Below are positions 4,955 to 44,933 of a stretch of DNA of 64,000 bases, piece after piece. The notes under the pieces were generated by a model. That model was not told the origin of the DNA, made no database searches, and worked only from the letters and a program-made list of their open reading frames with translations. This DNA comes from Bugula neritina. Its lineage: Eukaryota > Animalia > Bryozoa. Location: contig OZ037767.1 in assembly GCA_964035545.1 (NCBI GenBank), forward strand, positions 31,388,628 through 31,452,627. The letters are read 5' to 3'. The translations under genes were made by a program, and so were the position numbers. Within the stretch, counting starts at the first letter, position 1. Each line of letters starts with the position of its first letter.

Positions 4955-6954
4955 ATGTGATGTATACTTTTCATACCATTCATAATATATCATTTAATAT
5001 AATCAAATGATAACAACATATTGTGTTGTAGAACTTTCCAAGGGCGCCAACCCATACTACAAACTAGTGATGCAGAGTTTACTAAAGAAGTTTTAATCAA
5101 GAAGTTCTCAAGTTTCATGAACCGACGCAGGTGAAAGTAGATGAAGACAGTATGATTGGTAATAACGTAGCTCTGATACGAGATGATCACTGGAAACACA
5201 TCAGAGTTAGCTTGTCACCAACTTTCTCTTCTGGTAAACTTAAACAGGTACACAGATACTTTAAAATACTTTAGTTGATTAAATGGATGACTCAGCATGC
5301 TGGGACAGCAAATTGAAAATTAAGTGCAGTGTGCTCTGTTTGAATACTGTAACACAATCCTGATGTCTATGTTTTTATTCAATGCTTAAATTATTTTATG
5401 ATGCATAAATTAAGGCTTAAAAGCAATTTAATTTTTTAGAATGAAAATAGTTGTCAACTTGTTATTAGCCTTTAAATGTTTAGGCTTACAGAAAAATGGT
5501 ATATATTCAAAGTGATTGGTAATTATCTTGAATAATAGCAGCTGGGATAAATCAAATGGTTTAAAATATTACGGCATGGTTGTAAGTTGTAAGTTAAAAT
5601 TATTGTTTGCATCCTGTATACTGTGTATAACCAGCCACCACAATTTCCTATCTCTAGAACAAAAGATTTCACTTAAGTTAGTTGAGTGACCTGTGCTTAT
5701 AATTCAATAAAGCATACAACTGGAGTTTGAGTTTTGGTATCATTCTCTCCCAAACATGAAATGAAAAGTTTATTGACATAATATCTAAAACATCTGAAAG
5801 TAGTATAGTGTCTGGTTGATGAATATTTTCAAGATGTATCCAGTCATCAGCCAGTGTGCTGACAAGTTTGTGAAACAGCTGGAGCTGACCGATGCCTAAC
5901 CCACAGTCATCAATCAGTGAGTTGTGTTCTTATGATACTGATTCCCAGTTGATTTGGTGATTTATTATAATTTGAGACAGAGTTGCTTGAGTTATATATA
6001 AGTTTAGTAACACGGCCTGTATGAGAATAAAATCATACAGTTATAATATATACTCTACAGTCAATTCTACTATTTCTACTTTCAGTCTTGCAGCTGGCTA
6101 TACCATGGATGCCATAGCAAGAATAGCCTTTGGTTTAGATACTAACATCCAAGAAGAACCCAATCATCCATTTCTTGTTTACTCCAAAACTTTCTTTGGA
6201 TTTCCTTTAAACAACAGAATTACCACCAAAATAAAATTTTTTATTAGAATAGCGTGTCTCCGTGAGTTGAACTTTTAAAATTATTTTTTTTACATTTCAT
6301 GTTTACTTTGCTGCGCACGCCATAGTTTGTATACTTCTTCAAAATTATACAGGAAATGCTATGAAAATTGGTGCAACTTGTGTTGCTAAACAGCATAGTA
6401 TGTATAACATACTATCAAACATTGTACTGTATATTATCTGTTTGTATGCATAACATGCACAATTCCATCCATGTTATTGCAGTTTTGTGCTCAAGGAAAA
6501 TGAAAGAATTCCTCAACAGGTTTTTTGATGTATATTTCCCTGGCAGTGAGATTACAGACTACTTCTATGGTTTAATGACTTCTGTGCTCAGTGAAACTAC
6601 AGAAGAGCTTCAGGTTAGTACTGAAATAGACTAAGAGTTTCAGTGTTTAGTCAGCCTACTCATTTTCAGTTAGTAAAGTAATTATTCATGGTTAATACTA
6701 AGAGTTGAAAATTCAAAGAAAATGCATTTGAAAAAATTCAGATAACTGTGAGAGTTGTGCACCCTCTGCAGGGACTTTCCCTTATCTTTAGTTGTATAGG
6801 TTAAATTTCATATTAATGGTGAAGTAGCTACAGTATATGGTATTTTGATCATCTGTAAAATACAATGCAATTGTTCTTCTTAGAAAAGAAAAGACTTCAT
6901 ATCAATGTGCTCAGATAAAATGGTGGATATAGATAAAGTTGAAAAAGGTAGTAT

Positions 6955-7671
6955 TGTGGTAAAATTGTGTATAGTAACTAATACTTGTATCCCCCTTACT
7001 ATTATTATCTTCATTCCCATGGAATGCGTGTTTTCTTAGGTATACATCATTACATAGCCATAGTATTGTAACAGCTAAGTGTTATGTTGGCAATGATGGG
7101 ATTAGCTATTATTCCCAGCTACTTACTACTACTGACGTGACTGGATTAGCTATTGTTTCTGACGGCTCACAGGAACACTTATATAATCAAGATAACCGGG
7201 ATTTCCCTGCGAAGTTCGCTCGATTCGAGCGATTCCTTTGTTCTAGCCCTGCGAATCCCCTGCGATTCGAGCGAATTCCCTCGAATTCGCTCGGAACATT
7301 CTGGTGGGAATGTTTCCCAATGTATAAAAGGGAGCCCTCAACACAGTAGAGTCAGTCTTCAGCCAGCAGCACAACAGGACACATCTCGGAGCTACCAAGC
7401 CAGGACAATAACACACTTAGTTAATTATCTTATACTTTGTTTACCAGTTTACTAGTAAGTTTTCCATACATGTAAGGAGTTGTCCTCCCTAACTGCTATT
7501 TTTGGATTTATATATATTATGGAGTAAATAAAGGGGATTGTGAGTATTACATTTCTTATTTATTGTGCATAAATACCCTCCTACAAAGAGTCACTGTGTT
7601 CAATCAGCTAACAACCCACACCAATAATTGCATGCAGCGAATCATAACATTCTACGCATAAAATTATTACA
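6955..7671 (+). repeat. 5' LTR (717 bp)
   Basis: Starts TGTGGTAAAA, ends TTATTACA; repeated at offset 7942; TATAAAA 7323-7329, AATAAA 7527-7532. Confidence 0.97.
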
Positions 7672-7672
7672 C

Positions 7673-7690
7673 TGGTGGCAGCAGTGGGAT
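7673..7690 (+). other. Primer-binding site complementary to a tRNA-Leu 3' end
   Basis: TGGTGGCAGCAGTGGGAT, 1 nt after the LTR, complements ...AUCCCAC(U/C)GCUGCCA-CCA, the 3' end of eukaryotic tRNA-Leu (AAG/TAG type). Confidence 0.85.
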
Positions 7691-7740
7691 AATCGTCTGG
7701 TACAGACTAAGCTGATGCTCCCCTACGGGGAGAGACAACA

Positions 7741-8841
7741 ATGGATCCATTGAGGCCAGCGCCAGAGCTCGGGCCTGATGATGAACCAGCAGGAGGACGC
7801 TTCACCCTAGAGACATTGATTCGGACTCTCTGGGAAGACAGGGCAGCTGCACAGGCTCCACCTGGTGACAGGTTCCGCCTTAAAGCGCCAGTCTTCGACG
7901 GTGAAGGAAATGTAGAACAATTTCTACAAGAATTCCGCGAGGTGGCCGTGGCCTCCCAGTGGCCGGCCCAGGTGGAATTACTGCAACTACGGTCCTGCCT
8001 GACAGGTCGAGCCAAGCCCTATGCGGTAGGCCCGAATAGGGACCACATCATAGAGGCTCTGCGCGGCCGCTTCGGACTTACCGTCCGGGACGCGAGAGCC
8101 CGCCTACAAGGACTCCGACGAGACCCTAAGGTCTCACTACAGGATCACGCCAACAAAGTGGAGCAGCTGGTCCAGGTAGCCTACGGTAACGTAGACCTGG
8201 AGTCACGCCAGGCCATCACCTTTGATATCTTCCTGCAATCGCTCAATAACCTGAGCCTGCAACGGTATCTCTTGGCAGCTGGGGTCGACACCATTGAGGC
8301 TGCTCTGACCAGAGGAAAGGCGTACTACCAGATCGGCGGGAGTCAGGACTGTGACAGCAGTGCCCGACGAGTCGAGTCAGACTGGGGAGAGGCTGCCGAA
8401 CACATTCAGCCGAGGCCTCAAGTAGCGGCCGCCGCCACTACACCACCAACCCCACCCGAACTCTCCATGGTATTGGAGGTGGTGGACAAACTGCAAGAAG
8501 AGATCGCAACATTGCGACGGGCCCAAACTACTGACAGACCGGATCGGTCATACGGTAGTCAGCCCAACAAGGACGCTCAGTTAGAGCCTAGGGTAGCAGC
8601 TACTGCGCCTACCCCATCGACCTCAGCCGAAGTCTCCATGGTACTGGAGGTGGTGCGAGATCTACAGGCCGAAGTTAAGGCCCTGAGACGGGCCCAAACT
8701 ACTAGCCGGCCGAATCAGCCACGTAGTAGTCGCCCCGAAGGGTCTTCTCTCACGTGTTGGAAGTGTGGGACAACAGGTCATGTGCAACGAGACTGTCCCC
8801 GAGGACGCAGCGGTCCTTTAAACACCCAAGGCCTGCGGTAA
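7741..8841 (+). CDS. gag: Gag (capsid-like region, duplicated coiled-coil module, CCHC zinc knuckle), 366 aa
   Basis: PVFDG...FLQEF...W...L...LTGRA capsid-type pattern; CWKCGTTGHVQRDC knuckle; first ORF after the PBS. Confidence 0.93.
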   Translation: MDPLRPAPELGPDDEPAGGRFTLETLIRTLWEDRAAAQAPPGDRFRLKAPVFDGEGNVEQFLQEFREVAVASQWPAQVELLQLRSCLTGRAKPYAVGPNRDHIIEALRGRFGLTVRDARARLQGLRRDPKVSLQDHANKVEQLVQVAYGNVDLESRQAITFDIFLQSLNNLSLQRYLLAAGVDTIEAALTRGKAYYQIGGSQDCDSSARRVESDWGEAAEHIQPRPQVAAAATTPPTPPELSMVLEVVDKLQEEIATLRRAQTTDRPDRSYGSQPNKDAQLEPRVAATAPTPSTSAEVSMVLEVVRDLQAEVKALRRAQTTSRPNQPRSSRPEGSSLTCWKCGTTGHVQRDCPRGRSGPLNTQGLR

Positions 8842-11800
8842 TCTCCGCCACCCGCAGGCCGAGTCTCCAGACTCACCCGAGGAGGGTTTACTCTGCACCC
8901 AGGGAGGCGCAGACGGAACCCCCCTCATCCGAATGGCAAGCTCCCCGGAGAACTTGGAGGCCGAAAGGCCTGCCCGAACCTCCAGCTTGGCCACTCAACA
9001 ACCGGTTCGCGGGGTTACCCGAGGAGGTTGTGGAGGAGGATACTGATTCCGACCGGGATTTCCCCCGACTGCCCTCCAAACCTCAGAAAACCCCCGTGGT
9101 CCCTAGGACGTGTAAGAGGCCTACCGTCCAGACCCAAGAAGTGTCTCCCCCAGAGACAGACTACTCGAAACACACCCAACCATACGGAAGCAGCTATTTC
9201 CTGCCCGGCAAGATTGCGGGCAAAGCTGCCACCTTCCTGTTGGACACCGGGTGCACCACAAACCTTCTGAGTAGGCGTCTCTTCGACACTCTTGGCGCTC
9301 GGGAGCGGGAAAGCCTCAAGCCGTATAATGGTGAGCACGGTACGTTGGCGGACGGATCGAGCATACCATTTTACGGCCTCATCTCACTACCCGGAAGAGT
9401 TCGGGATCTCGTAATCCACGAGACCTTCATAGTGAGTCACCTGAAGGAGGATGCTATCCTTGGCATGCCCTTCCTTGAGGAGCACCAATGCCACATGGAC
9501 TTCAACAAGTCAGCAATAGTGGTGGATGGCAAGGAACTTACCTGCGTGGATAAGTTCGGCAGGCCTCTGGTAGGAGGCGTACAGGTGGTCCGGGACAGCC
9601 TGATTCCCGGGCGCTCTCAGGCTACACTCCGGTGCAGGGTCAACTGCAAGGAGATCTCTGAGCTAGGGGTTGTGGAGGGCATGCACAGAAAGGTACAGTT
9701 GGCAAACAGCCTGAATCGGCTAGACTGCCGTGGAGAGTTCCTGGTGCAGTGCATCAACCCCTACGCGGAGCCGGTGAAGTTATCGGCTGGTTCGCTGGTG
9801 GGCAGGTATCACTCGGTTCAGGAGACTGATGTTGGGCCCACACTCGATGCGACGTCGGAGACACCGAGTCGCCCCCTGGAGTCTGGCATGGGACCAGTCC
9901 CAGAGCATGTGGCGGAGCTATACAAGGGAGCCTGTGGTGGTTGTGGAAGTAACGTGGAGCGCCAACGGATGGCCCAGTTACTTCGAGAGTACCACGATGT
10001 ATTCAGCCAAGGAGACGAGGACATGGGGTTGACTAACGTAGTGCGGCACGAGATACCCCTAGTAACAGGGACTGCCCCCATACGACAACCCACTCGACGG
10101 CTGGGCCCGGAAAAGGAGAGGGAGGTTAGCCGGCAAGTCCAGGACTTGCTTGATCGGGACCTGATTGAGCCAGCCCACGGTGCGTGGAGCTCACCAGTCG
10201 TTCTGGTCAAAAAGAAGGATGGGAGCTGGAGATTCTGCGTTGATTACCGCAAGTTGAACAGCGTCACCATCCAGGATGCCTACCCTCTCCCCCGGATAGA
10301 CGAGTCGCTAGATGCCCTCGCGGGAAGTAGATACTTCAGCACGCTGGACCTACTGAGTGGATACTGGCAAGTACCCCTCAGTCCTGATGCACAGGACAAG
10401 GCCGCGTTCATCACTCGCGATGGCCTCTGGAAATGGAAGGTGTTGCCATTCGGGCTGACATCCGCCCCGGCCACCTTTCAGCGGCTCATGGAGCAGGTCC
10501 TCAGTGGGTTACACTGGAAGACGCTGCTAGTCTATCTGGACGACGTCATTGTTATCTCGCCAGACTTTTCGACTCATGTCAGTCGTCTGCGCGAGGTCTT
10601 TGACCGTCTCCGGGCCGCCGGGCTAAAGCTTAAACCCTCGAAATGTGCCCTCCTGCAGCAGGAAGTCAAATATCTCGGACATGTGGTCAGCCGGGACGGC
10701 GTTGCCACCGACCCCGAGAAAGTACGGGCCGTACAAGACTGGACTGTTCCCCAAGATATCCATGAACTGAGAGCGTTCCTAGGACTGGTGGGATATTATC
10801 GGCAATATATCCCCGAATTCGCAGGTGTGGCACAGCCATTGAATCGGCTAACCGCCAAAGGAGTCCGGTGGCGTTGGACTCAGGAAGAGCAGCAGGCTTT
10901 TGATCATCTCAAGGCCCGGCTAGTGGAGGCACCCATCCTGGCCTACCCCGACCCGACCAAACAGTATATCTTGGATACAGATGCCAGCGACCACAGCATG
11001 GGGGCTGTGTTGTCCCAGGTACAAGGAGGTACCGAGGTAGTGGTGGCGTATTACAGCAAGGCCCTCTCCACCGCCGAAAGAAACTACTGCACGACCAGGA
11101 AGGAACTCCTAGCAGTAGTTAAGGCGGTGAAGCATTTCCGGCCATATCTATATGGTAGAACGTTCAGATTACGAACTGACCATGCATCGTTGATATGGCT
11201 GTGCAAACGGGCCGAACCCTCCAGCCAGGTTGCCAGGTGGCTCGAAATACTTGCAGAATTCTCATATCGGATTGAACATCGCGCCGGCCGGAAGCATGGA
11301 AATGCTGATGGTCTGAGCCGTCGTCCAGAGAGAGACTGCAAGCAATGCCTCCATATAGAGAAGCGGGACGGGGGACCCGCCCGCTCGGAAGTTGAGACAC
11401 AACTGAAGAAAACAGAAGCCTACAGGTGGGAACAAGGCCGACTGCAATCCGATGTCCATTCAGATGCTGTCCAGGCCCTTCGGGTCAACCCCACCTTAGC
11501 CAGAAATGTCCGGGACTTGTGCCGATTACAGGAAACCCTGCCGGGGGTAGTGGGAGAGATATTCAGGGCCAAGAAGGAGGGGCGCCGGCCAGGTGAAGAG
11601 GAGCAGCGGCAGAAGGGCGTTGAATTCCAACAGTTCTGCCACCGCTGGGACTCCCTCAAATTCAACTCGGACGGATTGCTAACCATCTCCTTGGCAGCAG
11701 ACAGGCAACACCAGGAACGGGAGCGGGTTGTGTGCCCACACCCCCTCCGGAGAGAGCTCATCTGGGAGACTCACAAGCAAGCCCATGCGGGGACCAGTAG

Positions 11801-13199
11801 AGTGATTCGGTGCCTACAGATGCGGTGGTACTGGCCTGGGATGACAAGGGATGTGAGGCTACAGATCCGGCAATGTGAAATCTGCCAGGCGAGTAAGCAT
11901 GGCCGTTCCACCGAGACCACGGGACGGCGCAGGCTGTACGCCGGTCGCCCGTGGCAGACAGTGGCAGTCGACTTGGTGGGTCCCATGCCGACGTCCGCTC
12001 GTGGAAACAACTGGATTCTGGTACTAACGGATCATTTTACTAGGTGGGCAGATGCCTTGGCAATCCCGGACGCCTCCGCCCCGACGGTAGCCCGAGCTTT
12101 AGATCAGCACGTTTTCTGCTATTTCGGGCTACCGGAGCAGATCCACACAGATCAAGGGGCACAGTTCCAATCACAGCTGATGAGGGACCTCTGTCGGGTA
12201 TGGGGGGTCAACCAAAGTAGGACCACCCCCTACCACCCCCAAGGAAATGGCGTAGTGGAACGCAACAACAGGATGTTGGGCGACGCCCTGAGGAGTCTAC
12301 TACTAGGGAAAAGCCAAGAAGAATGGGACGCCGTGCTACCCCAGATCATGCGTGCATATCGCAGTACTCCCCACTCTAGCACCCAGGAGACACCCAACTT
12401 CCTAATGCTAGGCCGGGAAACGCGGGTCCCGGATCATCTCACGTACCACGTCCCCCTCCCAGAGGGACCTGTCCACGAATACGTGAGAGAGCTGGTTGAT
12501 AGGATGAGGACGGCCCATGAGGTCTTAAGGGAAAAACAATGGCAAGTGCGAGGGGAAGACTCGGACGAGCCCCCACTCTACCAGGCTGGCGATTGGGTAT
12601 GGATGATTAGTTACAGGAGGAAGCGCGGACAGTCGGCTAAATTACAGCCCAAGTTCGTGGGACCATACTGCATCATCGAAGTGCTACCCAATCACACGTA
12701 CCGCGTAGAACGCTCCGGACAGATTTCCGTCCAAAGCGAGAAACGCTTAAAACCGTACTGGGCCAGCCCTGGGGCAGTAGGACAAGCACCACCGCTCCTG
12801 GAGCCAGCACGACGACCCACCGGGGGAGGAAGGGCGCCCCCCACCCGAGAGTGGGAACTTCCCTATAACATACCGGAGGGAAACCCCGAAGCACAAGAAC
12901 CACCCCCCACTGTGCAAGAGCCCCCCGAGCAACCAGCACCTCAGGCGCCCCCACCAGTAAGACCACCCTCCGCCATACCAGAGAGGTTAGACCCACCTAC
13001 CCTGGAAGTAGGAGAGAGTAGAGCCACCAACCCTGGGGGACAGGCCACTTTGCCAGACACAGAAGGCCTAAGGCGTAGCCAGAGGACTCGAAGACCTCCT
13101 GGGTACTTAGGGGAATATTACTGTGGCCAGATAGGGAAAGGATACCCTAGCTCGGAGGACGAAGGGCCCCCCCTTGTATTACAACTATTCACCACCTAA
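8754..13199 (+). CDS. pol: Pol polyprotein (aspartic protease, reverse transcriptase, RNase H, integrase), expressed by -1 frameshift from gag at ~8817-8823
   Basis: LLDTGC (PR), WRFCVDYRKLN / YPLPRID / PFGL / YLDD (RT), LDTDAS / TDH / NADGLSR (RH), H-x3-H...CEIC, VDLVGP, TDQG, VVER, GPY (IN), terminal RRSQRTRRPP motif. Confidence 0.97.
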   Translation: MLEVWDNRSCATRLSPRTQRSFKHPRPAVISATRRPSLQTHPRRVYSAPREAQTEPPSSEWQAPRRTWRPKGLPEPPAWPLNNRFAGLPEEVVEEDTDSDRDFPRLPSKPQKTPVVPRTCKRPTVQTQEVSPPETDYSKHTQPYGSSYFLPGKIAGKAATFLLDTGCTTNLLSRRLFDTLGARERESLKPYNGEHGTLADGSSIPFYGLISLPGRVRDLVIHETFIVSHLKEDAILGMPFLEEHQCHMDFNKSAIVVDGKELTCVDKFGRPLVGGVQVVRDSLIPGRSQATLRCRVNCKEISELGVVEGMHRKVQLANSLNRLDCRGEFLVQCINPYAEPVKLSAGSLVGRYHSVQETDVGPTLDATSETPSRPLESGMGPVPEHVAELYKGACGGCGSNVERQRMAQLLREYHDVFSQGDEDMGLTNVVRHEIPLVTGTAPIRQPTRRLGPEKEREVSRQVQDLLDRDLIEPAHGAWSSPVVLVKKKDGSWRFCVDYRKLNSVTIQDAYPLPRIDESLDALAGSRYFSTLDLLSGYWQVPLSPDAQDKAAFITRDGLWKWKVLPFGLTSAPATFQRLMEQVLSGLHWKTLLVYLDDVIVISPDFSTHVSRLREVFDRLRAAGLKLKPSKCALLQQEVKYLGHVVSRDGVATDPEKVRAVQDWTVPQDIHELRAFLGLVGYYRQYIPEFAGVAQPLNRLTAKGVRWRWTQEEQQAFDHLKARLVEAPILAYPDPTKQYILDTDASDHSMGAVLSQVQGGTEVVVAYYSKALSTAERNYCTTRKELLAVVKAVKHFRPYLYGRTFRLRTDHASLIWLCKRAEPSSQVARWLEILAEFSYRIEHRAGRKHGNADGLSRRPERDCKQCLHIEKRDGGPARSEVETQLKKTEAYRWEQGRLQSDVHSDAVQALRVNPTLARNVRDLCRLQETLPGVVGEIFRAKKEGRRPGEEEQRQKGVEFQQFCHRWDSLKFNSDGLLTISLAADRQHQERERVVCPHPLRRELIWETHKQAHAGTSRVIRCLQMRWYWPGMTRDVRLQIRQCEICQASKHGRSTETTGRRRLYAGRPWQTVAVDLVGPMPTSARGNNWILVLTDHFTRWADALAIPDASAPTVARALDQHVFCYFGLPEQIHTDQGAQFQSQLMRDLCRVWGVNQSRTTPYHPQGNGVVERNNRMLGDALRSLLLGKSQEEWDAVLPQIMRAYRSTPHSSTQETPNFLMLGRETRVPDHLTYHVPLPEGPVHEYVRELVDRMRTAHEVLREKQWQVRGEDSDEPPLYQAGDWVWMISYRRKRGQSAKLQPKFVGPYCIIEVLPNHTYRVERSGQISVQSEKRLKPYWASPGAVGQAPPLLEPARRPTGGGRAPPTREWELPYNIPEGNPEAQEPPPTVQEPPEQPAPQAPPPVRPPSAIPERLDPPTLEVGESRATNPGGQATLPDTEGLRRSQRTRRPPGYLGEYYCGQIGKGYPSSEDEGPPLVLQLFTT
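8817..8860 (+). promoter_or_regulatory. -1 programmed ribosomal frameshift signal
   Basis: T TTA AAC heptamer in the gag frame, 6-nt spacer, perfect 9-bp stem GGCCTGCGG/CCGCAGGCC; pol is in the -1 frame. Confidence 0.88.
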
Positions 13200-13398
13200 C
13201 CACACCACCAGGGAGGCTCGATATCGGCAGGGGATCACTTCGATGTTCCTCACCCAGATCGGACAAAAACCCGATCCCGAAGTTGGAAAAACCCAGGCGA
13301 GGGACTCTCGCGATAAACCACGAACGCATACTTCGTTCATTCCAATCGCAGCAAGCACACACGCCACACGGAATTTAATCTCTCGCCATCTAACAAAT

Positions 13399-14682
13399 AT
13401 GGATATTACACCCACTCACCTGAATGTTGAAGAAGAGTCCAGCACACACCCTGGTAAGTCCACTAGACTAGAATTACCTCCTATACCGGAGATTTGTCTA
13501 GGTGGTGATGACAGTAGAAACTCGAACTCTGATTCCCAGAGTAAGTTCGAGATGTGGAGAACTCACACTTGGAACTCTGAAGGGTCGGACTCAGGGTCAC
13601 CCAACAGAGATTACCTACTTGACCAGGACATCCAGAGTGTCACTCTACCCCCACCTCGGCAGCTCGCAGTATCGCGACGAGTGCCATACAAGGATATCAC
13701 TAATAATAGAGTGAGTCAGCCATCGCGAGTTGGAGATATCGGTCAGACTCGACCAGCTCAACTCTCTATTTCTGTTGTAGACACCGACAAAGTCGTAGAG
13801 CCTGCCTCTACGACTCTCAGCTCATTCGGAAGATCCTCCGAAATCGCGGCACCCCAGGAGCAAGTAATGGAGGGAGATACAGAGACCCCTGCCACTGTCG
13901 TCGATATTGGACTAGATGAAGGGGAAGAACAGTCTATCCTGTCCTCATCCGGGACTACAGACCCCCCTCAAGGACTGGAGGGAGCTGGGGAGCTGGGACT
14001 ACCACGTGTTTTCAGCACCCGGTCTCACTGGACCAGCACCAAGACGCGGATCCTGATAGCTGAGGCTTGTGGGGAGCCTAGCAACACGAAGTGCCCCACA
14101 TGTGGGCGGAGCTTTACCTCGCACAGGCGACTACGGATACACGTCCAACAACATTACGTCAACTCATTCTGTCCGTGTGGGGAGTTTAGCTTCCAGCGGG
14201 ACTACGTGCTCAAGCACCAACGTATCGGCCGCTGCCACACGGGCAGAATTTTTGATGTGGATGCGGACAATTATCTAGAGTTCAGGGACCTGATTCTCCC
14301 CCACATCAGCGATCCCAAGAAGAGGGAGCTGTTGTCCCAAGGGTTCCCGGCCTGTCGACCCACTAGTCAGACTCAACTGCCAGAGGACCCCCCAAGTTGT
14401 GAGTTGCCACCCACCCAGCCTCTCCGGGTAGTGGTAACTCGAGCCGAAGCTACTGCAGAAGGAGACCGCTGGACGCCACGAGAAACGGCCCGAACTAGAA
14501 GAGAACGGCGTCGGCAGGGCGCACCGAGGCCGCGTAGTATCACTCCCTATACTACTAGGCACACACACCGTGGACCCCCGGAGAGTCTGGAGGATATATA
14601 TCGTGGCCTGGACCGGATCTCTGAGGAACTAGGACGCATACGACGCAGGCTGCAGGACCTTGAGCAGCCCGCTCGACCCTAA
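13399..14682 (+). CDS. Retrotransposon ORF3 in the env position: non-envelope protein with C2H2 plus atypical zinc finger, Arg-rich motif and C-terminal coiled coil (ORF open from 13174; ATGs at 13243 and 13399; 427 aa from 13399)
   Basis: 502 open codons inside the element; CPTCGRSFTSHRRLRIHVQQH (~14092-14154), CPCGEFSFQRDYVLKHQRIGRCH (~14170-14238), RETARTRRERRRQ, LEDIYRGLDRISEELGRIRRRLQDLE; ATG 13399 has A at -3 and G at +4; no signal peptide or TM stretch. Confidence 0.85.
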   Translation: MDITPTHLNVEEESSTHPGKSTRLELPPIPEICLGGDDSRNSNSDSQSKFEMWRTHTWNSEGSDSGSPNRDYLLDQDIQSVTLPPPRQLAVSRRVPYKDITNNRVSQPSRVGDIGQTRPAQLSISVVDTDKVVEPASTTLSSFGRSSEIAAPQEQVMEGDTETPATVVDIGLDEGEEQSILSSSGTTDPPQGLEGAGELGLPRVFSTRSHWTSTKTRILIAEACGEPSNTKCPTCGRSFTSHRRLRIHVQQHYVNSFCPCGEFSFQRDYVLKHQRIGRCHTGRIFDVDADNYLEFRDLILPHISDPKKRELLSQGFPACRPTSQTQLPEDPPSCELPPTQPLRVVVTRAEATAEGDRWTPRETARTRRERRRQGAPRPRSITPYTTRHTHRGPPESLEDIYRGLDRISEELGRIRRRLQDLEQPARP

Positions 14683-14882
14683 GGGTGACACTTCTCTTTA
14701 TGTAAATATATATTCTTGTGTGTATTAATTCATTATCCCTTAACATTTTCTATCTTATATATTTTTGTTGTGTGACTAGATTAGCCATTCCAGAACTCCC
14801 TTACATGTATTTTCTTTTATTTTCTTCCTTTTTTTTTATTATTATATTTTTTTAATTATATCAGAAAGGGGTTGTACTTTCT

Positions 14883-14896
14883 GATGGAGGGGAGTG
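14883..14896 (+). other. Polypurine tract
   Basis: GATGGAGGGGAGTG immediately before the 3' LTR. Confidence 0.85.
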
Positions 14897-15613
14897 TGTG
14901 GTAAAATTGTGTATAGTAACTAATACTTGTATCCCCCTTACTATTATTATCTTCATTCCCATGGAATGCGTGTTTTCTTAGGTATACATCATTACATAGC
15001 CATAGTATTGTAACAGCTAAGTGTTATGTTGGCAATGATGGGATTAGCTATTATTCCCAGCTACTTACTACTACTGACGTGACTGGATTAGCTATTGTTT
15101 CTGACGGCTCACAGGAACACTTATATAATCAAGATAACCGGGATTTCCCTGCGAAGTTCGCTCGATTCGAGCGATTCCTTTGTTCTAGCCCTGCGAATCC
15201 CCTGCGATTCGAGCGAATTCCCTCGAATTCGCTCGGAACATTCTGGTGGGAATGTTTCCCAATGTATAAAAGGGAGCCCTCAACACAGTAGAGTCAGTCT
15301 TCAGCCAGCAGCACAACAGGACACATCTCGGAGCTACCAAGCCAGGACAATAACACACTTAGTTAATTATCTTATACTTTGTTTACCAGTTTACTAGTAA
15401 GTTTTCCATACATGTAAGGAGTTGTCCTCCCTAACTGCTATTTTTGGATTTATATATATTATGGAGTAAATAAAGGGGATTGTGAGTATTACATTTCTTA
15501 TTTATTGTGCATAAATACCCTCCTACAAAGAGTCACTGTGTTCAATCAGCTAACAACCCACACCAATAATTGCATGCAGCGAATCATAACATTCTACGCA
15601 TAAAATTATTACA
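14897..15613 (+). repeat. 3' LTR (717 bp)
   Basis: No differences from the 5' LTR seen by eye; LTR-internal ORFs 7137/15079 and 7153/15095 translate identically. Confidence 0.97.
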
Positions 15614-16267
15614 GTATTAAAGTGACGGATGGAAAAAAATGGACAACACAAGGTAAGATTCTCACAGTTGAATGAATGCAAGAATTAGGTGCAAAGCTGT
15701 TTCGCATATCGCAAAGTGTAGTAACTAGTAATAGACTGTGCCATCTTTCAGGTCTAACAAAAGGGGACATCATAGCAAATGCCACGATATTTCTGGCAGC
15801 TGGTTATGAGAGTGTGTCCGGAGCATTGAACTACTTTTTCTACATCATGTCATTTAAACCAGACATTCAGAACAAGGTAAACCAGAATACCTTTTACCTT
15901 TTCCATTATTTCATCTAAAACAGGCTTTTTTATAAACACATTTTCATTTTTGAGTCTCTTGTATTTAAAAAAACAAACTTTAAAACCCCTACGAGTCATT
16001 TAATCTAAATTTGTACTCTTTAGCTTTACAGTTTAATTACTGAAGTGGTAGATGAGAATGGTGACTGTACATATGAAGACTTGAAGAAGTTAGAGTACCT
16101 TGACTGGTGTATAGATGAGACTATGAGAATGTTTCCAGCAGTTTCTCGGTAGTATTTTCTGGTTCAGTTTTTATCAACTAACTTACAAAAATAGTTCTTT
16201 ATTTGACTTTTCTTCCTTAAAAGGTGTCAAGTTTTGTGAATGCTATTGAGAGCACATCACAATGAAT

Positions 16268-17794: not shown

Positions 17795-20700
17795 CTAGCC
17801 AATTGCTGCCGGTTGGTTCCCACCACGTCTGACGCACGCTGTTCCTCCACACTTCCCAGGACAGCATATCTCACCAACTCTGGGACAGGGTTGTCCTCTC
17901 TTGCATGTGAATCCTACTCTCACTTGCTTGCATATGGCTGGTTTTCTCCTCGGGACAGCAGGGCACCTGTTGGCCAATCAACATGTCACTTGCTTGCATA
18001 TAGCAAATCAGCATATCACAATGTGTAGCACAATGAGATATGCAGAATTTCTCAGACAGTTTGTGGAATATTCATGCAGATTATATTAGTAGTCTGGCAG
18101 AAAAACACCAATTTTTGACTTAGGTTCGCAATCCCGGATAAAGTTTTTTTCTCTTCTGATTATTCAAATATAAGGTCTAGGTAAATGTTTCCAGGTGGGT
18201 GTGGACTTTTTACCCTTGAGCATTTTGAGAAATTCAAGATGGCCGCCAGGCACCAGACGATTCTATATAATTCAAATGTATCTACCCACCAAAGCTAAAT
18301 TTAAGGTTCCAATGCTTTGAAATCTTTAGAAATTAATATAATAAAGATGCATGTGCCTTTATCATGTGTATTATTGAGTAATAGGCAAATGATACCCAAG
18401 GGTAGCTAAGCTAAGCCTTAATCATTCATTTTTTAAGCTTAACTTAGCCTTGCCATGTTCATCATTTTCTTGCATCTCTGCATCAGTTTGTTCTAAATTC
18501 ATGAAAACTTACTAAATGGGGTGATTTTATATGCTGATTACAAATATGTCCAACAAATAAAGCTGAAAGGGGTTCTGCAAAATTGAAATGCAACGTCATT
18601 GTCATATGAGCTAAATAGCAATTTATTTCAAACTAGCATGCGTATTAAAAAGGTTTGTTGAGCTGCCAATTTAATAGTTATTTTTAGTTTTAAAATTTTA
18701 GCTATACTTTTAAAAATTAGAAAAAAGGGTCAACAACTTTGATAATACAACACCATGGCTTCTTAACATAATTTAATTGCTTTATTATTGACACATCATT
18801 TATCTAAATATTGACATTTTTGCTTTCAAAAACTACTTCTACAATCAGCACAGTTGACTTTTTCTCTAAAAACATTTGTAAACAGTTTTTTTATGAATGA
18901 GAATCTATTTCATGCTGGGGGAAGTAATACATCCATGAGAACAGTGCGGCTCTCTGCCTTTTTCATACTAATCCCTTTTCATAAACACTTACTATTAATT
19001 TCTCCCCTTTAATAACCTATGTTGGGTGCACTGGAACACTAATGGTTGAAACGGATTTGGCAAAAGTAGTTAATTCTACTTTTGGTGGTTTTTCCAAAAT
19101 GCTAAATAGAAAAAGTTTCCCCAGAATGTACGGGGGCCTGAGAATATTGGTGGGAGAGCTGTTGAAGCCAGTCTTTGATGAAAGTGTAATCACTAGCATG
19201 GAGGACCTTGAAAAGATGTTGACTAAGATTTCAGAAATCTCAAGAACAGCAAAACTGCGGGTCATGTGCTTTAGCAGACCGATTTTTACCATCAACGCCT
19301 ACATCATAACTGATAGAGAAGGAGACTGGGCCTTACACCTAGCAATGGAAGAGGAAATGTACTTATATCTGTGTAGCATGGAGGTCGTGCCACAAAATGT
19401 AAGGATTGAATTCACGGCTGGTAACCACACAATGCATCATAAACACGCATCTGGTCAAACATGACCATTGAGGTGACCTTCGTGAGATTTGGTCACAGCA
19501 AGGGGGAATCATTGGCATCACCAATAAAACTGAAATTGGCAAGGTGTGGGTGTACAGCACTTCTGCATGCAACAAGATACAGTAAGGCCTCAGTGACATC
19601 AGAGATGAGTCTGAAATAAATGCTTTCACTGCTCATAAAGATGAAATGCAATCAAGAATCCAATCTGATTCAAAGGACAGGGAGTCTGTCAAAAGGAAGA
19701 TTGAACTCTGCAATGTCTCACTCAAAGAAGGATGCCACCCAGTTGCTCTTGTCAATATTGAAACAGAGAAAGTTATCAGTTATTCAGCAATTATTATTGA
19801 CAATATTTTTGTTATAGGTAAAGCATCTATACAAAAATCTAAAGTGAAGTAGTCGAAGGGGTTGAATAAATCCTTGTCATCTAAAGTGAAAACAATGGTA
19901 TCATCTTAAAGGCATATTAAGGTTTCTAATACTCCTGTGTATGATACTGAAGTCATATATGCCCAAGCCATTGCACTCAAGCAGACCAAGAATTTGGACG
20001 CAGACTCTTCAATGGCATATAAACTTGCAGCATTGCTACCTTCTACATTCCAAGAAGCAGGAAAAATAAGAGAAGCTAAGACCAAGTCGATTCTCAAAAA
20101 AATCTGTGAAAATTGAGTTTTCAGAACAGTCCGCGACAAGAAGTTAAGAAAATGTCCACCAAGCTGAAGGTACTGTTATACAAGATGGCAATAAAAACTA
20201 CACTGATGTATGGATATCAGACATGGCCACAAGAGAACAAGATAATGCAACTGAGATGAGGATGCTTTGACACGTTTACAATATAAAGTGGGAAGACCAT
20301 ATAACAAATGCTAATATAAGGAGGGGGCCAAAATAAAAGCCATCGCAATAGGCATGAGGAGGAGACCTCTTCAATGGTATGGACATGTGCACAGAAGAGA
20401 TAGGGAGGAAGATATTATAATGGTAGCTGAGATGAAGATACAGAGAAAGAGAGGGAGGGAGGCCAAAGAAAAGTTTAATGGATACAGGGAAGGATGACAT
20501 ACTGAAATGCGGTCTCTCAGATGAAGATGTTGACAACAGAATCAGATGACACTCTCTGATAGCACTTGGTGTCCTGCAAAACCGCCACCCATCCTAGACC
20601 ACAGCGTACTAGGTGAGAAAATCTGAGACAAATCCCTATAATGAACAAGTTGCTGCCGTTCCATGGCCTTTCATCAAAGTGTGATACAGTGGCAACAATG

Positions 20701-23700
20701 TAAAATATTGGAAAGGGAGTCATACTAAATGTCTTGGTAGAAGAAAAGTGTGATTAGGTGACACTAAGGCTTCTTTTCAGGATAACTATTCATACAAGCT
20801 ACCACGTTTATGCTATGTTGCTACGCTTATGCAAAGTGCTCCTCCATGACATCTAAAAGACAAAAGGCTTAGAAAACCAAGGTCAGCAATGCTGTTTGCG
20901 ATGTGCCTTCAACTTATATACTTTGCCTCCTACAGATGAAGCTATCGGACAATGTCACCAGAGCACACCTCCAGGTAGCCATATGAAACATCGGCATTAA
21001 ACCCACTAAAACATTGGTAGGTGAAAAGGGATCTAATAGAATCTCTTTTACCAAAAATGTGGGAAATGATGTTGTGCTTACACCAGACAGTATTATGAAG
21101 TGGATAATTTTACCTAATTTGGTGTACACTCGATGACTCTAGTTTTGGCGATTTTTTAGAATTTAGCTGTTATTGTGTATATATTTTTGCCCCAAACTAT
21201 TAAAATTTTAACAAATAAAACTGAATAATTAAGGCTTTTTCAATTATGCATGATTTTCTATGTTTTTTCCTAATTTATTTGTACATTGAAATATTATATG
21301 GACCGTGATGGTTCACAAATATATATTTAGCTCGTATGACACGACGCCGCGTTTAAATGTTGCAGGACCTCTTCCCAGTTTTTTTGCTATGCATAGTTAA
21401 AATCAACAAATTCTATTACTCTATATAGTAGGTTTTCATTAATTTTGAGCAAGCATTAAAATTTTTGATCATAATCTGCTAATGTGTGCTAAATAAAGTA
21501 AAATGGCCCAAATTCATTAAATGCTCCTGTGGAAGCTAACAATCATGCAAAACAACAAAACAACGAGATATGCCTGTTCTAGTACATCTATCCCATGCAC
21601 AGAGTTCTGTCCTTGTAAAGCAGTAACAGGAGTGTGCTGCAATGAACTAACATTTCTAACAAATGCTAATGATAGAAAAAAATGAGAAAGGTGTTTAATA
21701 TGAACATGAGCAAAAGTTCGTCACATCTGTATGATTATATATATGTTCCATTTTAACTTTAGCTGAGCATTATGCCTCTGCATCTTTTTCACTTTCTATT
21801 CACTGGCAATAAGCAATGTTTTTCTTCTTATATCTGTCCAAACAATTATTCAAAAACCTTGTATCATTTCTCTGCACCATATATGATGTTTGATTGAAGC
21901 AATTCCGATTTTTGAGCTGAGCAACATGTCTCCTGGTTTTTTACTTTGATTAATTTTGCACTGGAAGAGCACATATTTATTCCAAAAATGCGCATCTATT
22001 TGAATCATCAAAAAAAGTTTGTTTTTGCAATATAATATAGACTTTATGCCTATTAGATTACGGTTTTTTCAAAATTGGCGGCCATCTTGGATTTCTCGAA
22101 ATGCTCAAGGGTGGCAGGTCTACACCCACCTGGAAACATTTACCTGGACCCTCAAGATAAATAATCAAGAGAGAAAAAAACTTTATCGGAGATTGCGAAC
22201 CTAACCCCCAGTTCTGCCAGACTATAGAGGCTGAAAAGATTTTTCTGCTAATATCTGAGTACATTGCTAATATCTGAGTACATTGCTAATATAGTTGATT
22301 AGGCAACACGCATACAAACAAGGGCAAACAACTTCAATGTAGAAAATTGCAAGAACCTGTTTTTAGATGGTGGAGACTTTCTAGTAGTTTGTTTCACACA
22401 CTGACTGCCACCGCAGGTAGAGGCTGGACAGCAAATCTCATTCCCAGGACACGTCTTTCCTCCAATGACGCACTCGTTTATTATAGTCACCTGACGACAT
22501 ATGCTTGGCAGCGGTCTAGCCACTTCTATGAGGCAACCCCTGAAACACTCTGTTATTGTCACTTTTGCTAGTCTTTAATTAAATTAATAAAATATAGTAA
22601 CTATTAGAATAAAGTTAATATTACAGGTAATCAACGGCTCTAATAGAACTATAACCTGGAACTGCTTATTAGTTGAATCTTGACTTTTGGAAGCCTTCCA
22701 GATGTATTTAAAAAGGCACACTGTTTTGGACTGACCACAATAAAATATTTGTAAGCCATCATACTTATACCTTGGCCGCTTTCCAGGTCTTTGTTTACGA
22801 CGCTGCCTACGGTTATTTCTGGCAGTTAGTAGTGGCTCTACACAAGTCTTAGGACATCCTATAAGACAGACAATTGAAGTTCTACTTCTGTCCAAAAAAT
22901 AGAATGCTTTTTTAATCAAACAATACATTTTCCCATTCAATATGCTTATCCAGGCTTTAAAGTTAAAAGCAGTTTCAAATATACTGTTATAATTAATTTA
23001 TTGTGATGGGGTTCAATGTGATGTCATATCACACCTCCTTCACTCACCACAGCATTTATCTCCTCCTGGACACTCATGGTCTCTGCTGCACTGGAAACTG
23101 TCAAACGGACAATCTTTGTTACGAGTCGGAAAAAGCGACGTGTCTAGGGGGCATCTTCCAGGTTTACCTCCTCTTTTCTTGCTCAAAGTTACTGTGTGAT
23201 TGTACAGTAGGTATATGATATTGTACAGTAGGTATATGATATTGTACAGTAGGTATATGATATTGTACAGTAGGTATATGATATTGTACAGTAGGTATAT
23301 GATATTGTACAGTAGGTATATGATATTGTACAGTAGGTATATGATATTGTACAGTAAGTATATGATATTGTACAGTAGGTATATGATATTGACAGCAGGT
23401 ATATGATATTGTACAGCAGGTATATGATATTGTACAGTAGGTATATGATATTGTACAGCAGGTATATGATATTGTACAGTAGGTATATGATATTGTACAG
23501 TAGGTATATGATATTGACAGCAGGTATATGATATTGTACAGCAGGTATATGATATTGTACAGTAGGTATATGATATTGTACAGTAGGTATACGATATATA
23601 GCTCTTGCAAGTTGAGTTGTTTAATAAATTTACGACTTTGACTAATTTAAAAACAATAACTGCAGCAATAAAAGAGTTTCTAATTGTTCCCCAACTTCTA

Positions 23701-23928
23701 GTTTAGACTAAAATGCTATTTTCAAAACATAACTCATTTTTATTTTAATTTTGTTTAGATTAATACCCTATAGGCCCTTTATGTAGAGAGTATAGACTAA
23801 CTTTCCCCTAGCCCGTACCTCCCACATTACACCGCATCTCCTGAAAAGAGTTCCAATATTGAAAACTGAGACAAAAACTTACCAGTGAAGTTTACTAGCA
23901 GTAATAAAACCATCAGAGAGAGTTTCAT
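17795..23928 (-). CDS. Secreted three-WAP (four-disulfide core) domain protein, 210 aa; exons 23928-23883, 23191-23048, 22858-22771, 22539-22357, 17966-17795
   Basis: Signal peptide MKLSLMVLLLLVNFTVTLS; domain 1 KPGRCP...DCP...QCSRDHECPGGDKCCGCPKTC; domains 2 and 3 have 8 Cys each (C...C...C...CP...CC...CGG..C); all introns GT-AG, phases 1,1,2,2; exons sum to 633 nt. Confidence 0.88.
18090..22224 (+). mobile_element. Decayed DNA transposon, Academ-like, in intron 4 of the WAP gene
   Basis: ~150-bp imperfect TIRs (TAGTCTGGCAG...aagatggccgcca / tggcggccatctt...CTGCCAGACTA); TAG on both flanks (3-bp TSD); broken coding remnants FGGFSKMLNRKSFP..., REGDWALHL..., LPPTDEA...NVTRAHLQVAI. Family call rests on recalled resemblance only. 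Confidence 0.75.
20200..20620 (+). mobile_element. 5'-truncated RTE-clade LINE fragment nested in the DNA transposon
   Basis: Degenerate translation IKWEDHITNANIRR...RRRPLQWYGHVHRR...R(G)RPKK...D...DEDVDNR, typical of the RTE ORF C-terminus; boundaries approximate. Confidence 0.75.
23200..23592. repeat. 21-bp minisatellite (tgtacagtaggtatatgatat, ~18 copies) in WAP intron 1, abutting the exon 2 acceptor
   Basis: Directly visible; gives periodic SRYMILY ORFs. Confidence 0.95.
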
Positions 23929-24240
23929 ACTTGCTTCAATAGGCAGCTGGCTGGATTAACACACTCAACAGCTTAGTAAAAGCTATACGCACATCTCACA
24001 ACATAAAGGAAGTACATATAGTCAGAGAGATGGAAAAACATGAGTAAACAGGGGATTATCTGTTCCATTAATCCCATGACATCATCAGATTATCTATATT
24101 GTTTTCATGGTAGAACATGCTTACTAGCTATGCTATGAATATATAATAGTCCTATCCTTACAATATAGTATTATAAAGTGGGCTACGGTGAGAGGCAACG
24201 ACTAAAAGGATAAAGTTGCATGGAAACACGATATTGAGAC

Positions 24241-26022
24241 CAGGGATGTAGTGGTACCCATACGGTCCCATACGCCGTATGGCCTAGAAGAAAATAGGCT
24301 GTTCTTGGCCATACGCCCGTATGGGCATATATTTTTTGAAAGTGTTACTGATTAGTGCACAGGATAGTTAGGGCATCCTCACTGAGAACATCATAGATTT
24401 CGCTCACAATCTAGTTTAAGTTCTTGTTATGTTAATGCTATGTGGGTGGCATGCGTGTTGCCTACTTGTGATTGTTTAGCCTGAGATTACACTATGAATA
24501 ATAAGCAGCTATCAACATTCCATCTTCTCATCTCTACGTATTCACTGAAGCGCGAAGTGCTGCGCATTAGTGATTACTAAGGAAAAAATATTTCATTTTC
24601 AGTGTATAAATCACTAATTTTTAGAAAATCTATGAAGGCTATTGAAAAGATAAAAAAGTTTGCTATGCATAAATTTCTCAGGTTTTCGACAGTGTTTGTT
24701 TTATTCGAATACTATGCTTTCCTGCTGAGATATTTGGCAGGGATTGAAAAATAAACTTTTCAGGTAAAATTGGCCAAAATAGTAGATTTTTGTCTATAAC
24801 CTTGCAAAAAAAATATTGAAAATTCGAAAAATCAGGTGCTCTGAGGAACAGGAAGATCTAAAACATAGTTTTTAAATTTTAACTCTAGCACAATTAAGTA
24901 TGGTTTTATTTGGCGGGACTAAATTCTTATAATATACCAATAATGTGGCCTCAGCAAGGCAGTGTCAGCTAGAAAGTTGCCATTATTTATCTTGTGTGGA
25001 CTTGCATTTTGTCAATAAGCAATGAAATTTGGAAAAAAAACCAACATGAAATCCAGAAATAAAATCAAAATGTCTTCAGGAAACAGTACCAGGTGTGTAG
25101 GAGAGGTTAATGAAAATTTATCACTGAGGTCTACAGGTACTATATCCACATTTTGGTTGCGTTATTCCATGTTAATTATCAATGCAATGAGGTTTTGCAA
25201 ACTGTACACCACCATAAGTAACCTTTTATGTTTGATTGTACTAACGTCTGGCTTTACATTTAATCATCTTCTAGGTTAACACATATTGAACCTGTCAAAT
25301 TTGTTCTTTTGGGGTATATTTCCTTGATGTGTCTAGTGGAAGCTCAGGGGTTTTACTTTAAAACCAAGTTAACATACTCTTCTTTGGTGTGCTTTATTGT
25401 GTGCAAGGAGGTGCGGTGGTATCTCCTTATGGATTAGACTAGTATACTCTAATAAACTCCAACTAGGTTTTCAACCAATTTCTGCTTGCCAATGAGTTAT
25501 CAATTCAAATTGCTCTTTATAAATAACCAACACACATTTTCTAATTTGCAATCTTCCTCTGTTCTGTTCTATAATTTTTTTTCTGTGCACGTCAGTGTAT
25601 TAGATATTTGAAGTAATCAGGTTACATTTGGAGAGCACTTGTTACCTGTCTCTATCCTTCCATCTTTTTGAGATCTTCAGCAATTTTTCTGTACAGGTTG
25701 GACTTAGTGTCAATTGAGTAAGACTACATTTAAAATTACAGTCAACAGGACAATACTGAATATTTATATAGTTTGCAGCAATGCCCAGTCGTCATGTAAC
25801 TGGTATGGTATGAAAATAATAGTGAGGTGCACATTTCAACACAGATTTTTTTCAGAAGAATTAGAATTCACAATGGCTTTAAATTGCATAAATTCGCATC
25901 AGAAGCGCTCTGAGGGCTTCGGCGGCCGGGGCGCTGCCCCGGACCCCGCCGGGGGCCTGGGCGGCCCCCTGGACCCCCGGCCTGAGAGTATGGCCAAGAA
26001 TATTTTTACCACTACATCCCTG
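24241..26022. mobile_element. Non-autonomous hAT DNA transposon (1782 bp)
   Basis: Perfect 16-bp TIR CAGGGATGTAGTGGTA / TACCACTACATCCCTG; 8-bp TSD ATTGAGAC (24233-24240, 26023-26030); GC-rich subterminal block 25914-25982; no transposase ORF. Confidence 0.92.
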
Positions 26023-26874
26023 ATTGAGACCACTGATGTCTCCAGTCATGCCTATAGGCAGTGCTGCTATCTGCTGCTACATTTCACGGCAAGTATTCAG
26101 CTAGCTTATGTATTTCTAGTCATTTAGAAAGCATACTGTATAACCATCAGTGACATGGCATATTAACCATGTAGTATGGCAAGACTCCACCACAATTAGA
26201 CCTCAAGTCAGTGAGCAGTCATAATCATAACCATATTTAATAAAAACTGAACATTCTTAAGTCTCAGTACAGCTCTGGTGTTATATTTTACCATATCATA
26301 TAATTTACTGGTTACAAGTAGAGAGCAGCAGATATAAAGTCTAACTGGACTCTGGTTTGCAAGGTCTCGGAACTTCTGTGTATTGTCAGAAAGCTTGAGA
26401 CTGGCAAATCAAAACCCACAGCCTATCCTGCACTGTAACATATGGCTCTTACATAATACCTTCATCTGAAACCTTAGTCATCATGTATCAAAGACATGGG
26501 TTTCATATTTTCTGATAGCCATTCTCTTACAGGATTTAGCATATTTCATAGTTTTCAATCAACATAACATAAGAAACTAGAAACTGCTGGTCATGGTATT
26601 GGCTTGTTTGTAGTAACAATAACTGCAAGTAAATGCAGCTGATTACACAGTTTCACCGTCTTCATAAGTTATGGTTAATACTGCTTTGTAGTATTGTATA
26701 TGATGGACAGAAAGGTATGTATATTATATAAAGTAATCCAGGTGTATTATAATAAATACCAACAAGAAAAATATCTCATTACATTTCATATAGAACTAAA
26801 TTTAAGATCTTCCTAATTAGCAAAACTACAATAGCATTGCTTACAACATACTCTGTACAGCCTAGAAACATGTG

Positions 26875-27240
26875 TACAGAATATATGCACTGCATCACTG
26901 CAGAATATATGCACTGCATCACTGCAGAATATCTGCACTGCATCACTGCAGAATATCTGCACTGCATCACTGCAGAATATCTGCACTGCATCACTGCAGA
27001 ATATCTGCACTGCATCACTGCAGAATATATGCACTGCATCACTGCAGAATATATGCACTGCATCACTCCAGAATATATGCACTGCATCACTGCAGAATAT
27101 ATGCACTGCATCACTGCAGAATATCTGCGCTGCATCATTACATAATATATGCACTGCATCACTGCAGAATATCTGCACTGCATCATTACATAATATCTGC
27201 ACTGCATCATTACATAATATCTGCATTGCATGATTACAGA
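26875..27240. repeat. 24-bp minisatellite (tgcagaatat[a/c]tgcactgcatcac) downstream of the ABCF3 stop
   Basis: Directly visible; produces 8-aa periodic ORFs in several frames. Confidence 0.95.
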
Positions 27241-27571
27241 ACGTATACACTGTAACACTGCAGAATACAATATTATATGTTCTTCTTGGGGTTTACTAAA
27301 CATGATCTTCCCAGACACAGCATCATCTGACTTTTTTTTAGTTTAGAGTCATTCATTAAACCTGATTATCAGAAACCAGTTCTGTTTAAAGAGTTAGAAT
27401 TAGTGTGCAGCTGTCTTTCAGAGTAACAGAATAACAGTGACTAGTTGAAGGCAGACGACTCTAATATGTAAAAGCTTTCAAATTTTTTACTGTTATCACA
27501 CCATGGTACTGGTGCCGAGTATTGGCTGACTCGGCAGATGGTGTGGCAGCACGTATAGTAGAGAGCTACCA

Positions 27572-44933
<17,362 letters not shown>

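Follow-up and report, generated by a model that had tools for sequence, protein, structure and literature searches.

A conserved double zinc-finger ORF3 in a complete Ty3/Gypsy element of Bugula neritina, a candidate regulator of its own long terminal repeat

Background

This work concerns a third open reading frame (ORF3) located between pol and the 3' long terminal repeat (LTR) of a Ty3/Gypsy retrotransposon of the bryozoan Bugula neritina. The element lies in a stretch of 64,000 nucleotides of contig OZ037767.1 (assembly GCA_964035545.1, positions 31,388,628 to 31,452,627, forward strand); this whole stretch is called the window, and all positions are counted from its first letter. The nearest described counterpart is CERV, encoded by the Caenorhabditis elegans Ty3/Gypsy element Cer1. 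CERV is a nuclear, non-env ORF3 product of a spliced RNA, required for the export of genomic RNA (PMC10309623). Its M domain forms a ring and contains a C4 finger, its N-terminal zipper is also present in Gag, and it has in addition a G domain resembling a GTPase; its last exon, exon 5, shares the frame of the polyprotein, and it has no homologues outside nematodes.

Other systems provide partial counterparts. Foamy-virus Tas joins LTR binding to an activation domain, and its expression is driven by an internal promoter (PMC12282171); none was identified in the present element. LTR retrotransposons of rotifers and plants carry varied, lineage-specific non-env ORFs, some of them with nuclear-localisation signals (NLSs), coils and disorder; the types named in the sections consulted are GDSL, DEDDy, transmembrane (TM), coiled-coil and transposase-like, with no C2H2/C2HC pair among them (PMC5408684, PMC11728184). 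The word 'zinc' does not occur in PMC5408684. The anti-silencing aORFs (additional ORFs) of Vandal, mentioned in PMC11728184, are a further precedent. A first-pass annotation of the window had stressed that the third ORF of a Gypsy element is usually env; given the non-env ORF3s published (PMC10309623, PMC5408684, PMC11728184), this premise overstated the surprise. A search of the full-text literature, at the level of titles and abstract starts and with Repbase and Dfam outside its scope, returned no C2H2/C2HC ORF3 in animal Gypsy elements; a Repbase or Dfam entry for such an ORF3 may exist.

We report that ORF3 is a real, selected accessory frame, and that it belongs to an apparently undescribed zinc-finger family. 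The reading that we favour, with a probability of about 0.4, is that the protein acts in the nucleus, dimerised through its coil, and regulates the LTR of its own element by binding DNA.

Results

ORF3 encodes a double zinc-finger core, a basic patch and a terminal coil

From stop to stop, ORF3 covers positions 13135..14682 of the + strand (515 codons). The first-pass annotation had described an intact ORF of 502 codons from 13174. The frame is open as described, but 13174 is a TTG codon, and the in-frame ATGs are found at 13243 (479 aa), 13399 (427 aa), 13552 and 13867. The ATG at 13399, with A at -3 and G at +4, has a better context than that at 13243, and it aligns with a methionine of a relative, P0003. 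ORF3 had also been considered as GC-rich as gag and pol, whereas it is slightly poorer (54.5% versus 58.4% and 57.6%, respectively; at third codon positions, 53% versus 56% and 63%).

The region N-terminal to the core is acidic and rich in Ser, Thr and Pro. The core itself (13993..14361, +) is conserved and consists of two fingers with flanking helices. Finger 1, of C2H2 type (14092-14154), reads C-x2-C-x12-H-x3-H and fits the pattern C-x2-C-x3-F-x5-L-x2-H-x3-H; it scores 18.6 bits, under the Pfam cut-off of 27 bits. Finger 2, of C2HC type (14170-14235), reads C-x-C-x12-H-x5-C and is joined to the first by the linker YVNSF. Further downstream on the same strand are a TQPLRVV motif (14413..14442), conserved in relatives, a basic patch (14479..14517), which is made of Arg in this copy and is Lys-rich in many relatives, and a C-terminal heptad helix (14587..14664), predicted to form a coiled coil and modelled with a predicted local distance difference test score (pLDDT) of 88-95. 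The canonical finger and its atypical neighbour, the Arg cluster and the coil are all present where the first-pass annotation had placed them. It was also right that ORF3 has no TM helix, the highest hydropathy over 19 residues being 0.54. An env identity was rejected on the same value, as no TM anchor is present and the Pfam scan returned no env family. Matches to the D-box, the clathrin box and the PP2A-B56 LxxIxE motif were dropped, being inconsistent across members of the family described below.

The core defines a large and deep family

The C-terminal 210 residues of ORF3 matched nine unnamed proteins. A profile search with the core, allowing lengths up to 2000 aa, gave 21 proteins of 283-575 aa, and an exhaustive search with no length limit gave 139 clusters at E <= 0.001. 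The core profile reached at least 40 bits in 134 of 163 proteins, counting ORF3 of this element and three near-duplicates; the proteins scoring lower were mostly generic multi-finger proteins or Pols. Identity within the family descends to about 25-30%. Members share the pattern W-x4-T-x3-I...C-x2-C-x12-H-x3-H-x4-F-C-x-C-G-x2-S-x2-R-D-x4-H-x5-C...V-D-x6-F. Among the 101 members that span both fingers, 66 keep the full set of eight zinc ligands, and residues on both finger helices, mostly basic, are conserved (R/K in 88, R in 74, R in 83, D/E in 92 and R/K in 68). Where the tail was of sufficient length (75 members), the basic patch was found in 40 and a terminal heptad helix in 29, compared to 0.5 expected from shuffles; this crude heptad score missed the coil of the present element, which the structure model does predict. 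In P0025 and P0039, the double-finger core occurs twice in tandem ahead of the terminal coil.

Neither Pfam nor the ESM Atlas gave a name to the domain. No Pfam family covered it as a whole, the generic C2H2 model being touched by 15 of 98 members at E <= 0.01 and by none of 8 further members, and the ESM Atlas returned only unnamed or generic C2H2 clusters, with no named host protein matching the whole domain. The first-pass annotation had considered as a possible origin a host finger exon captured recently. This was rejected: no named or whole-domain host match was found, and the family is deep.

Such a large family with a conserved core argues that ORF3 is not a chance frame. Variation among close copies points the same way, and a chance or neutral ORF was rejected on both grounds. 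In the sister copy P0002 (97.5% identical), 12 of 479 residues differ, none of them within the 122-residue core (about 0.03 by binomial arithmetic); the first-pass annotation had considered that ORF3 might be broken in sister copies, and here it is intact with its core unchanged. In public sequencing runs, for which variants were read from the 40 of 1831 substitutions and 12 of 72 indels listed, 20 substitutions fell in ORF3, and they were synonymous in 4 of 4 cases in the core compared to 6 of 16 in the N-terminal half. Contigs of run X1 (about 98% alike) and of runs X3 and X4 (mostly 80-95% alike) cover all three frames, gag, pol and ORF3; run X2, none of whose 36 contigs reached 95%, was left out of the evidence.

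The core is predicted to be one compact domain

A first structure model, built from 21 sequences, was poor (pLDDT 57.9). With 98 sequences, a 130-residue core was modelled with a pLDDT of 94.6 and a pTM (predicted template modelling score) of 0.86. In the predicted order, one helix precedes the two fingers, and a strand and two further helices follow them, the extra helices and the strand wrapping the fingers into one compact domain; the models show no folded domain in ORF3 beyond this core and the terminal helix. Over model residues ~33-83, the finger pair superposes on tandem C2H2 fingers in complex with DNA, namely those of Kaiso (57 residues, root-mean-square deviation (rmsd) 2.8, Z 3.7) and of SALL4, ZBTB20 and CTCF (50-51 residues, rmsd 2.3-2.6, Z 3.0-3.4). 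The pair is predicted, at the level of the model, to have a geometry of DNA-binding type.

The U3 region holds CpG-rich inverted repeats

Just upstream of the TATA box of the LTR is an array of direct and inverted repeats (7205..7293), made up of TTCGCTCG (twice), CGAGCGA (twice) and CCCTGCGA (three times). Within the window, these U3 repeats are confined to the LTRs. Their CpG observed/expected ratio is 1.75, compared to 0.38-0.40 in the flanks of the element. Since the repeats are inverted, they are suited to a dimeric binder, and on sequence grounds they are a candidate binding site for ORF3. The U3 region also has a 20-nt direct repeat at 7094/7138, and TGACGTGA, near 7134, is CRE-like (cAMP response element).

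A predicted intron would give two forms of ORF3

Splice-site scoring predicts a stop-free, in-frame intron of 327 nt inside ORF3 (13454..13780, +). Between 7250 and 14900, its donor is the best of 374 GT and its acceptor the best of 610 AG; both are in phase 1, and pol has no site as strong as this pair. Both sites, ordered and in frame, occurred in 0.1% of 3000 codon shuffles. From the ATG at 13399, the predicted spliced product would have 318 aa, compared to 427 aa unspliced. Judged by eye, the residues of aligned relatives are compatible with both splice sites.

Inside the predicted intron lies a conserved pair of acidic-hydrophobic motifs, LLD...PYK (13609..13692, +). Each motif is found in 11 of 21 members (less than 0.3 expected), and in the 10 members with both they are 21-22 residues apart. 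In the DYLLDQD codons, 3 of 3 of the listed substitutions are synonymous. This conservation within an optional intron argues that selection also acts on the long form. The possibility that the codons for PYK cover a TATA box was considered and dropped, as this copy reads TACAAG and members are inconsistent. The predicted intron, like the possible continuity of ORF3 with pol discussed below, goes beyond the first-pass annotation.

A proposed nuclear dimeric regulator of the LTR

The reading that we favour can be put together as follows. ORF3 would be a two-zinc-finger, basic-patch, coiled-coil accessory protein of this Gypsy lineage, translated from the ATG at 13399 of a subgenomic, probably spliced RNA. 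Optional removal of the intron would separate a 427-aa form, which keeps the acidic LLD...PYK segment as a candidate effector region, from a 318-aa form without it. The protein would likely enter the nucleus via its basic patch and dimerise through the terminal coil; the finger core would likely bind the CpG-rich inverted repeats of its own LTR, and this binding might activate the element or relieve its silencing.

The first-pass annotation had proposed a dimeric nucleic-acid-binding regulator with an Arg-rich motif comparable to that of Rev. The first part is supported as far as a conserved, non-env accessory protein of nucleic-acid-binding type is concerned (zinc ligands in 66/101, coils in 29/75). 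The comparison to Rev fits less well. In 10 of 24 close relatives the patch has at least as many Lys as Arg residues, which argues for an NLS rather than a Rev motif, and from its composition the patch is likely to be an NLS. When the last 60 residues were scanned for a class-1 nuclear export signal (NES), only 4 of 24 close members matched, and this copy did not.

Several observations weigh against LTR regulation by DNA binding. C2H2 fingers bind RNA and proteins too. The structural Z values, at most 3.7, are below the level that the tool holds meaningful, and Foldseek searches with the core returned no hit from PDB or BFVD at E <= 0.001. VIA-align returned nothing at Z >= 5 either, a null result that is no proof of a new fold. 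The U3 motifs could serve as sites for host factors instead: GGGATTTCCC (7190-7310, also in the 3' LTR copy) is NF-kB-like. As RNA, the U3 repeats of the 3' LTR (15130-15260) fold into a branched structure with a z of -4.2, and none of 200 shuffles fold as well. For splicing, the matrices were approximate consensus values and the shuffle thresholds were set post hoc, just under the observed scores; moreover, in a back-translation test on 30 relatives, the best acceptor was in phase 1 in 9 of 30, no more often than in shuffled sequences (226 of 600). Finally, a location within Gypsy elements has been established for close relatives and for two further members, P0005 and P0007, only, and in each of these two a single frame contains the integrase tail motif together with the ORF3 core. 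Three rival readings are taken in turn below.

RNA export as an alternative

An export factor akin to CERV, Rev or Rex, made from spliced RNA, would bind genomic RNA that still contains the intron, perhaps where the U3 repeats fold near its 3' end, and license it for nuclear export. If the strong splice sites of ORF3 are used, RNA of full length would have to avoid being retained. CERV, the only such Gypsy ORF3 with a functional test in the literature searched, is required for the export of genomic RNA (PMC10309623), and the Rex response element (RxRE) of HTLV-1 sits in the 3' LTR (PMC7551171). The fold of U3 is in keeping with such a role, but inverted repeats in the DNA could account for it by themselves. 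The Lys content of the patch and the scarcity of NES-like patterns also argue against export, as do the resemblance, weak as it is, of the finger pair to DNA-bound tandem fingers and an architecture unlike the H-M-G layout of CERV. We consider an export role rather unlikely, although it is the best placed of the rivals.

Continuity with pol as an alternative

In this copy, integrase and ORF3 are in different frames: ORF3 lies in the +1 frame relative to pol, whose last 65 nt it overlaps. A homopolymer run lies in this overlap (13167..13173, +), and a second rival supposes that the register was shifted there, by mutation or by assembly error. In most active copies, ORF3 would then be a C-terminal zinc-finger tether on integrase, steering integration from the position taken by a chromodomain elsewhere, and a spliced product could coexist with it, as in Cer1. 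The length of the run does vary in run X1: one contig carries the variant, with a depth of 794 out of 2226 summed, near that of the main pieces (839-1017). Stops near this variant are nevertheless possible, given the fraction of variants listed. The 88 codons upstream of the ATG at 13399 are open, and in tblastn the pol tail was matched by both P0005 (E 1.6e-4) and P0007 (E 6.6e-6). The N-terminus of P0003 also opens with residues resembling the pol tail, but weakly (E 1.5).

The family as a whole speaks otherwise. Its longest member has 596 aa, and none of the 134 contains a reverse transcriptase (RT) or integrase core; when pol and gag were compared by BLAST to 158 proteins, P0007 was the sole match. 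All five related Pols that were found end no more than about 15 residues from the integrase tail motif (they are only 46-54% identical, and their elements may or may not carry ORF3), and the sister P0002 is called as a separate protein of 479 aa. A tether on integrase seems unlikely as the usual state of ORF3.

A host-directed role, the weakest of the three, would make ORF3 a protein-binding decoy for factors of silencing or immunity, or else a finger domain taken from the host long ago and of minor importance; the packing of the fingers with extra helices and a strand in one compact modelled domain and the short conserved linear motifs in disordered regions are compatible with it, but the domain as a whole had no match among named host proteins or Pfam families, the conserved basic helix residues suit contact with nucleic acid, and the spread of the family makes recent capture unlikely, so that we hold this role to be improbable.

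The host element is complete and young

The window contains a single complete Ty3/Gypsy element, at 6955-15613, and no second copy. As the first-pass annotation had claimed, it is complete, with identical LTRs of 717 nt (5' LTR, 6955..7671; 3' LTR, 14897..15613; both +) that have TG...CA ends; a 4-bp target duplication, GTAT, borders it, and gag and pol are intact. The insertion is young. A primer binding site (PBS), probably of tRNA-Leu type, lies at 7673..7690 (+), and a polypurine tract (14883..14896, +) adjoins the 3' LTR. The gag frame (7711..8841, +) has an ATG at 7741 and encodes a CCHC knuckle. The pol frame (8730..13199, +) has the order expected of Ty3/Gypsy, that is, protease, RT, RNase H and integrase, followed by an SH3 domain and, at the end, an RxRxPPxYL tail motif; its best PDB match is Ty3 (E 1.5e-122). 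A slippery heptamer, TTTAAAC (8817..8823, +), lies inside the gag/pol overlap, and pol, in the -1 frame, would be reached by frameshifting there. The CpG observed/expected ratio in the coding frames of the element is 0.70-0.76, also above that of the flanks. A metagenome scan for relatives gave two loci with matches of 16 residues only, and a viral scan gave no match.

In the 5' LTR, two candidate splice donors (7455 and 7472) sit between TATAAA (7323) and AATAAA (7527). By analogy with foamy viruses, in which such an arrangement of donors reportedly suppresses polyadenylation in the 5' LTR, these sites could have the same effect here. In run X1, the LTR bins (6900-7690) have a summed depth of ~7800-9100, compared to ~900-1700 over ORF3; this depth is not a copy number, and it may reflect many solo LTRs.

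Surroundings of the element

Two exon-like frames (15745-15885 and 16021-16150, +) read ...FLAAGYESVS... and ...LDWCIDETMRMFP..., which are typical of the I and K helices of cytochrome P450. The element has the same orientation and, about 140 nt upstream of the first frame, probably sits in an intron. A frame with LSGGQ at 27860-28393 (-), adjoining a 30-nt tandem repeat, has the motif of an ABC-F-type ATPase exon, and 41161-41847 (+) is a leucine-rich-repeat exon with the C-terminal cap pattern. A low-complexity open frame of 346 codons at 46019-47059 (-) is probably a long host exon. Inverted repeats of 129 nt (86%), at 18120-18248 and 22076-22204, stand 3.8 kb apart around a frame of 159 codons (18985-19464); the unit 18120-22204 is possibly a decayed DNA transposon. 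Dense minisatellite arrays, with units of 12-38 nt, occupy AT-rich DNA at 23100-35400 and 61500-62000.

Discussion

A broader view would be that there is a lineage of 'complex' animal Gypsy elements, in which a dimeric, sequence-specific finger transactivator or anti-silencer reads CpG-rich LTR palindromes, is switched between isoforms by an optional intron, and has its domain sometimes placed on integrase. As a whole, we hold this view to be doubtful. After CERV, a second family of regulators, unrelated to it, widespread and based on a well-folded double zinc finger, would show that LTR retrotransposons have repeatedly evolved retrovirus-like regulators. Binding of ORF3 to the CpG-rich repeats of its own LTR would explain the activity of the element in a CpG-depleted genome, while an ORF3 that rides on integrase would be a new targeting domain. 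With a core of 120 residues and a U3 array of 90 bp, these readings can be tested in vitro.

How does ORF3 compare with known systems? With the tandem C2H2 proteins Kaiso/ZBTB33, SALL4, ZBTB20 and CTCF, it shares fingers that superpose over 50-57 residues (rmsd 2.3-2.8); it differs in its short linker without TGEKP, in its CxC...H...C second finger, and in flanking helices and a strand that are unmatched. Rev and Rex are not known to have such a finger pair. The likeness to these proteins lies in the basic patch, the oligomerisation helix, the (here predicted) spliced message and a predicted 3' LTR structure comparable to the RxRE (PMC7551171), but across the family the patch is not restricted to Arg and no NES is conserved. 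The chromodomain of chromovirus integrases is likewise a reader-type domain downstream of integrase (PMC12440569, bioRxiv 10.1101/2023.10.26.564294); the domain type is different, and a frame change separates ORF3 from pol in this copy. Tas suggests an analogy of another kind, that of an accessory gene 3' of the structural genes with proposed DNA-binding and activation parts acting on its own promoter; Tas belongs, however, to the Retroviridae, and no sequence or fold match was found in PDB or BFVD. CERV, compared by its description, differs from ORF3 in that the latter has a C2H2 and C2HC pair and a C-terminal coil, with no G domain and no evident part shared with Gag. The two are nevertheless alike in being non-env ORFs in the position of env, with a zinc-binding motif, a basic NLS, a leucine zipper and a splice acceptor inside the open frame, the last three being predicted in the case of ORF3.

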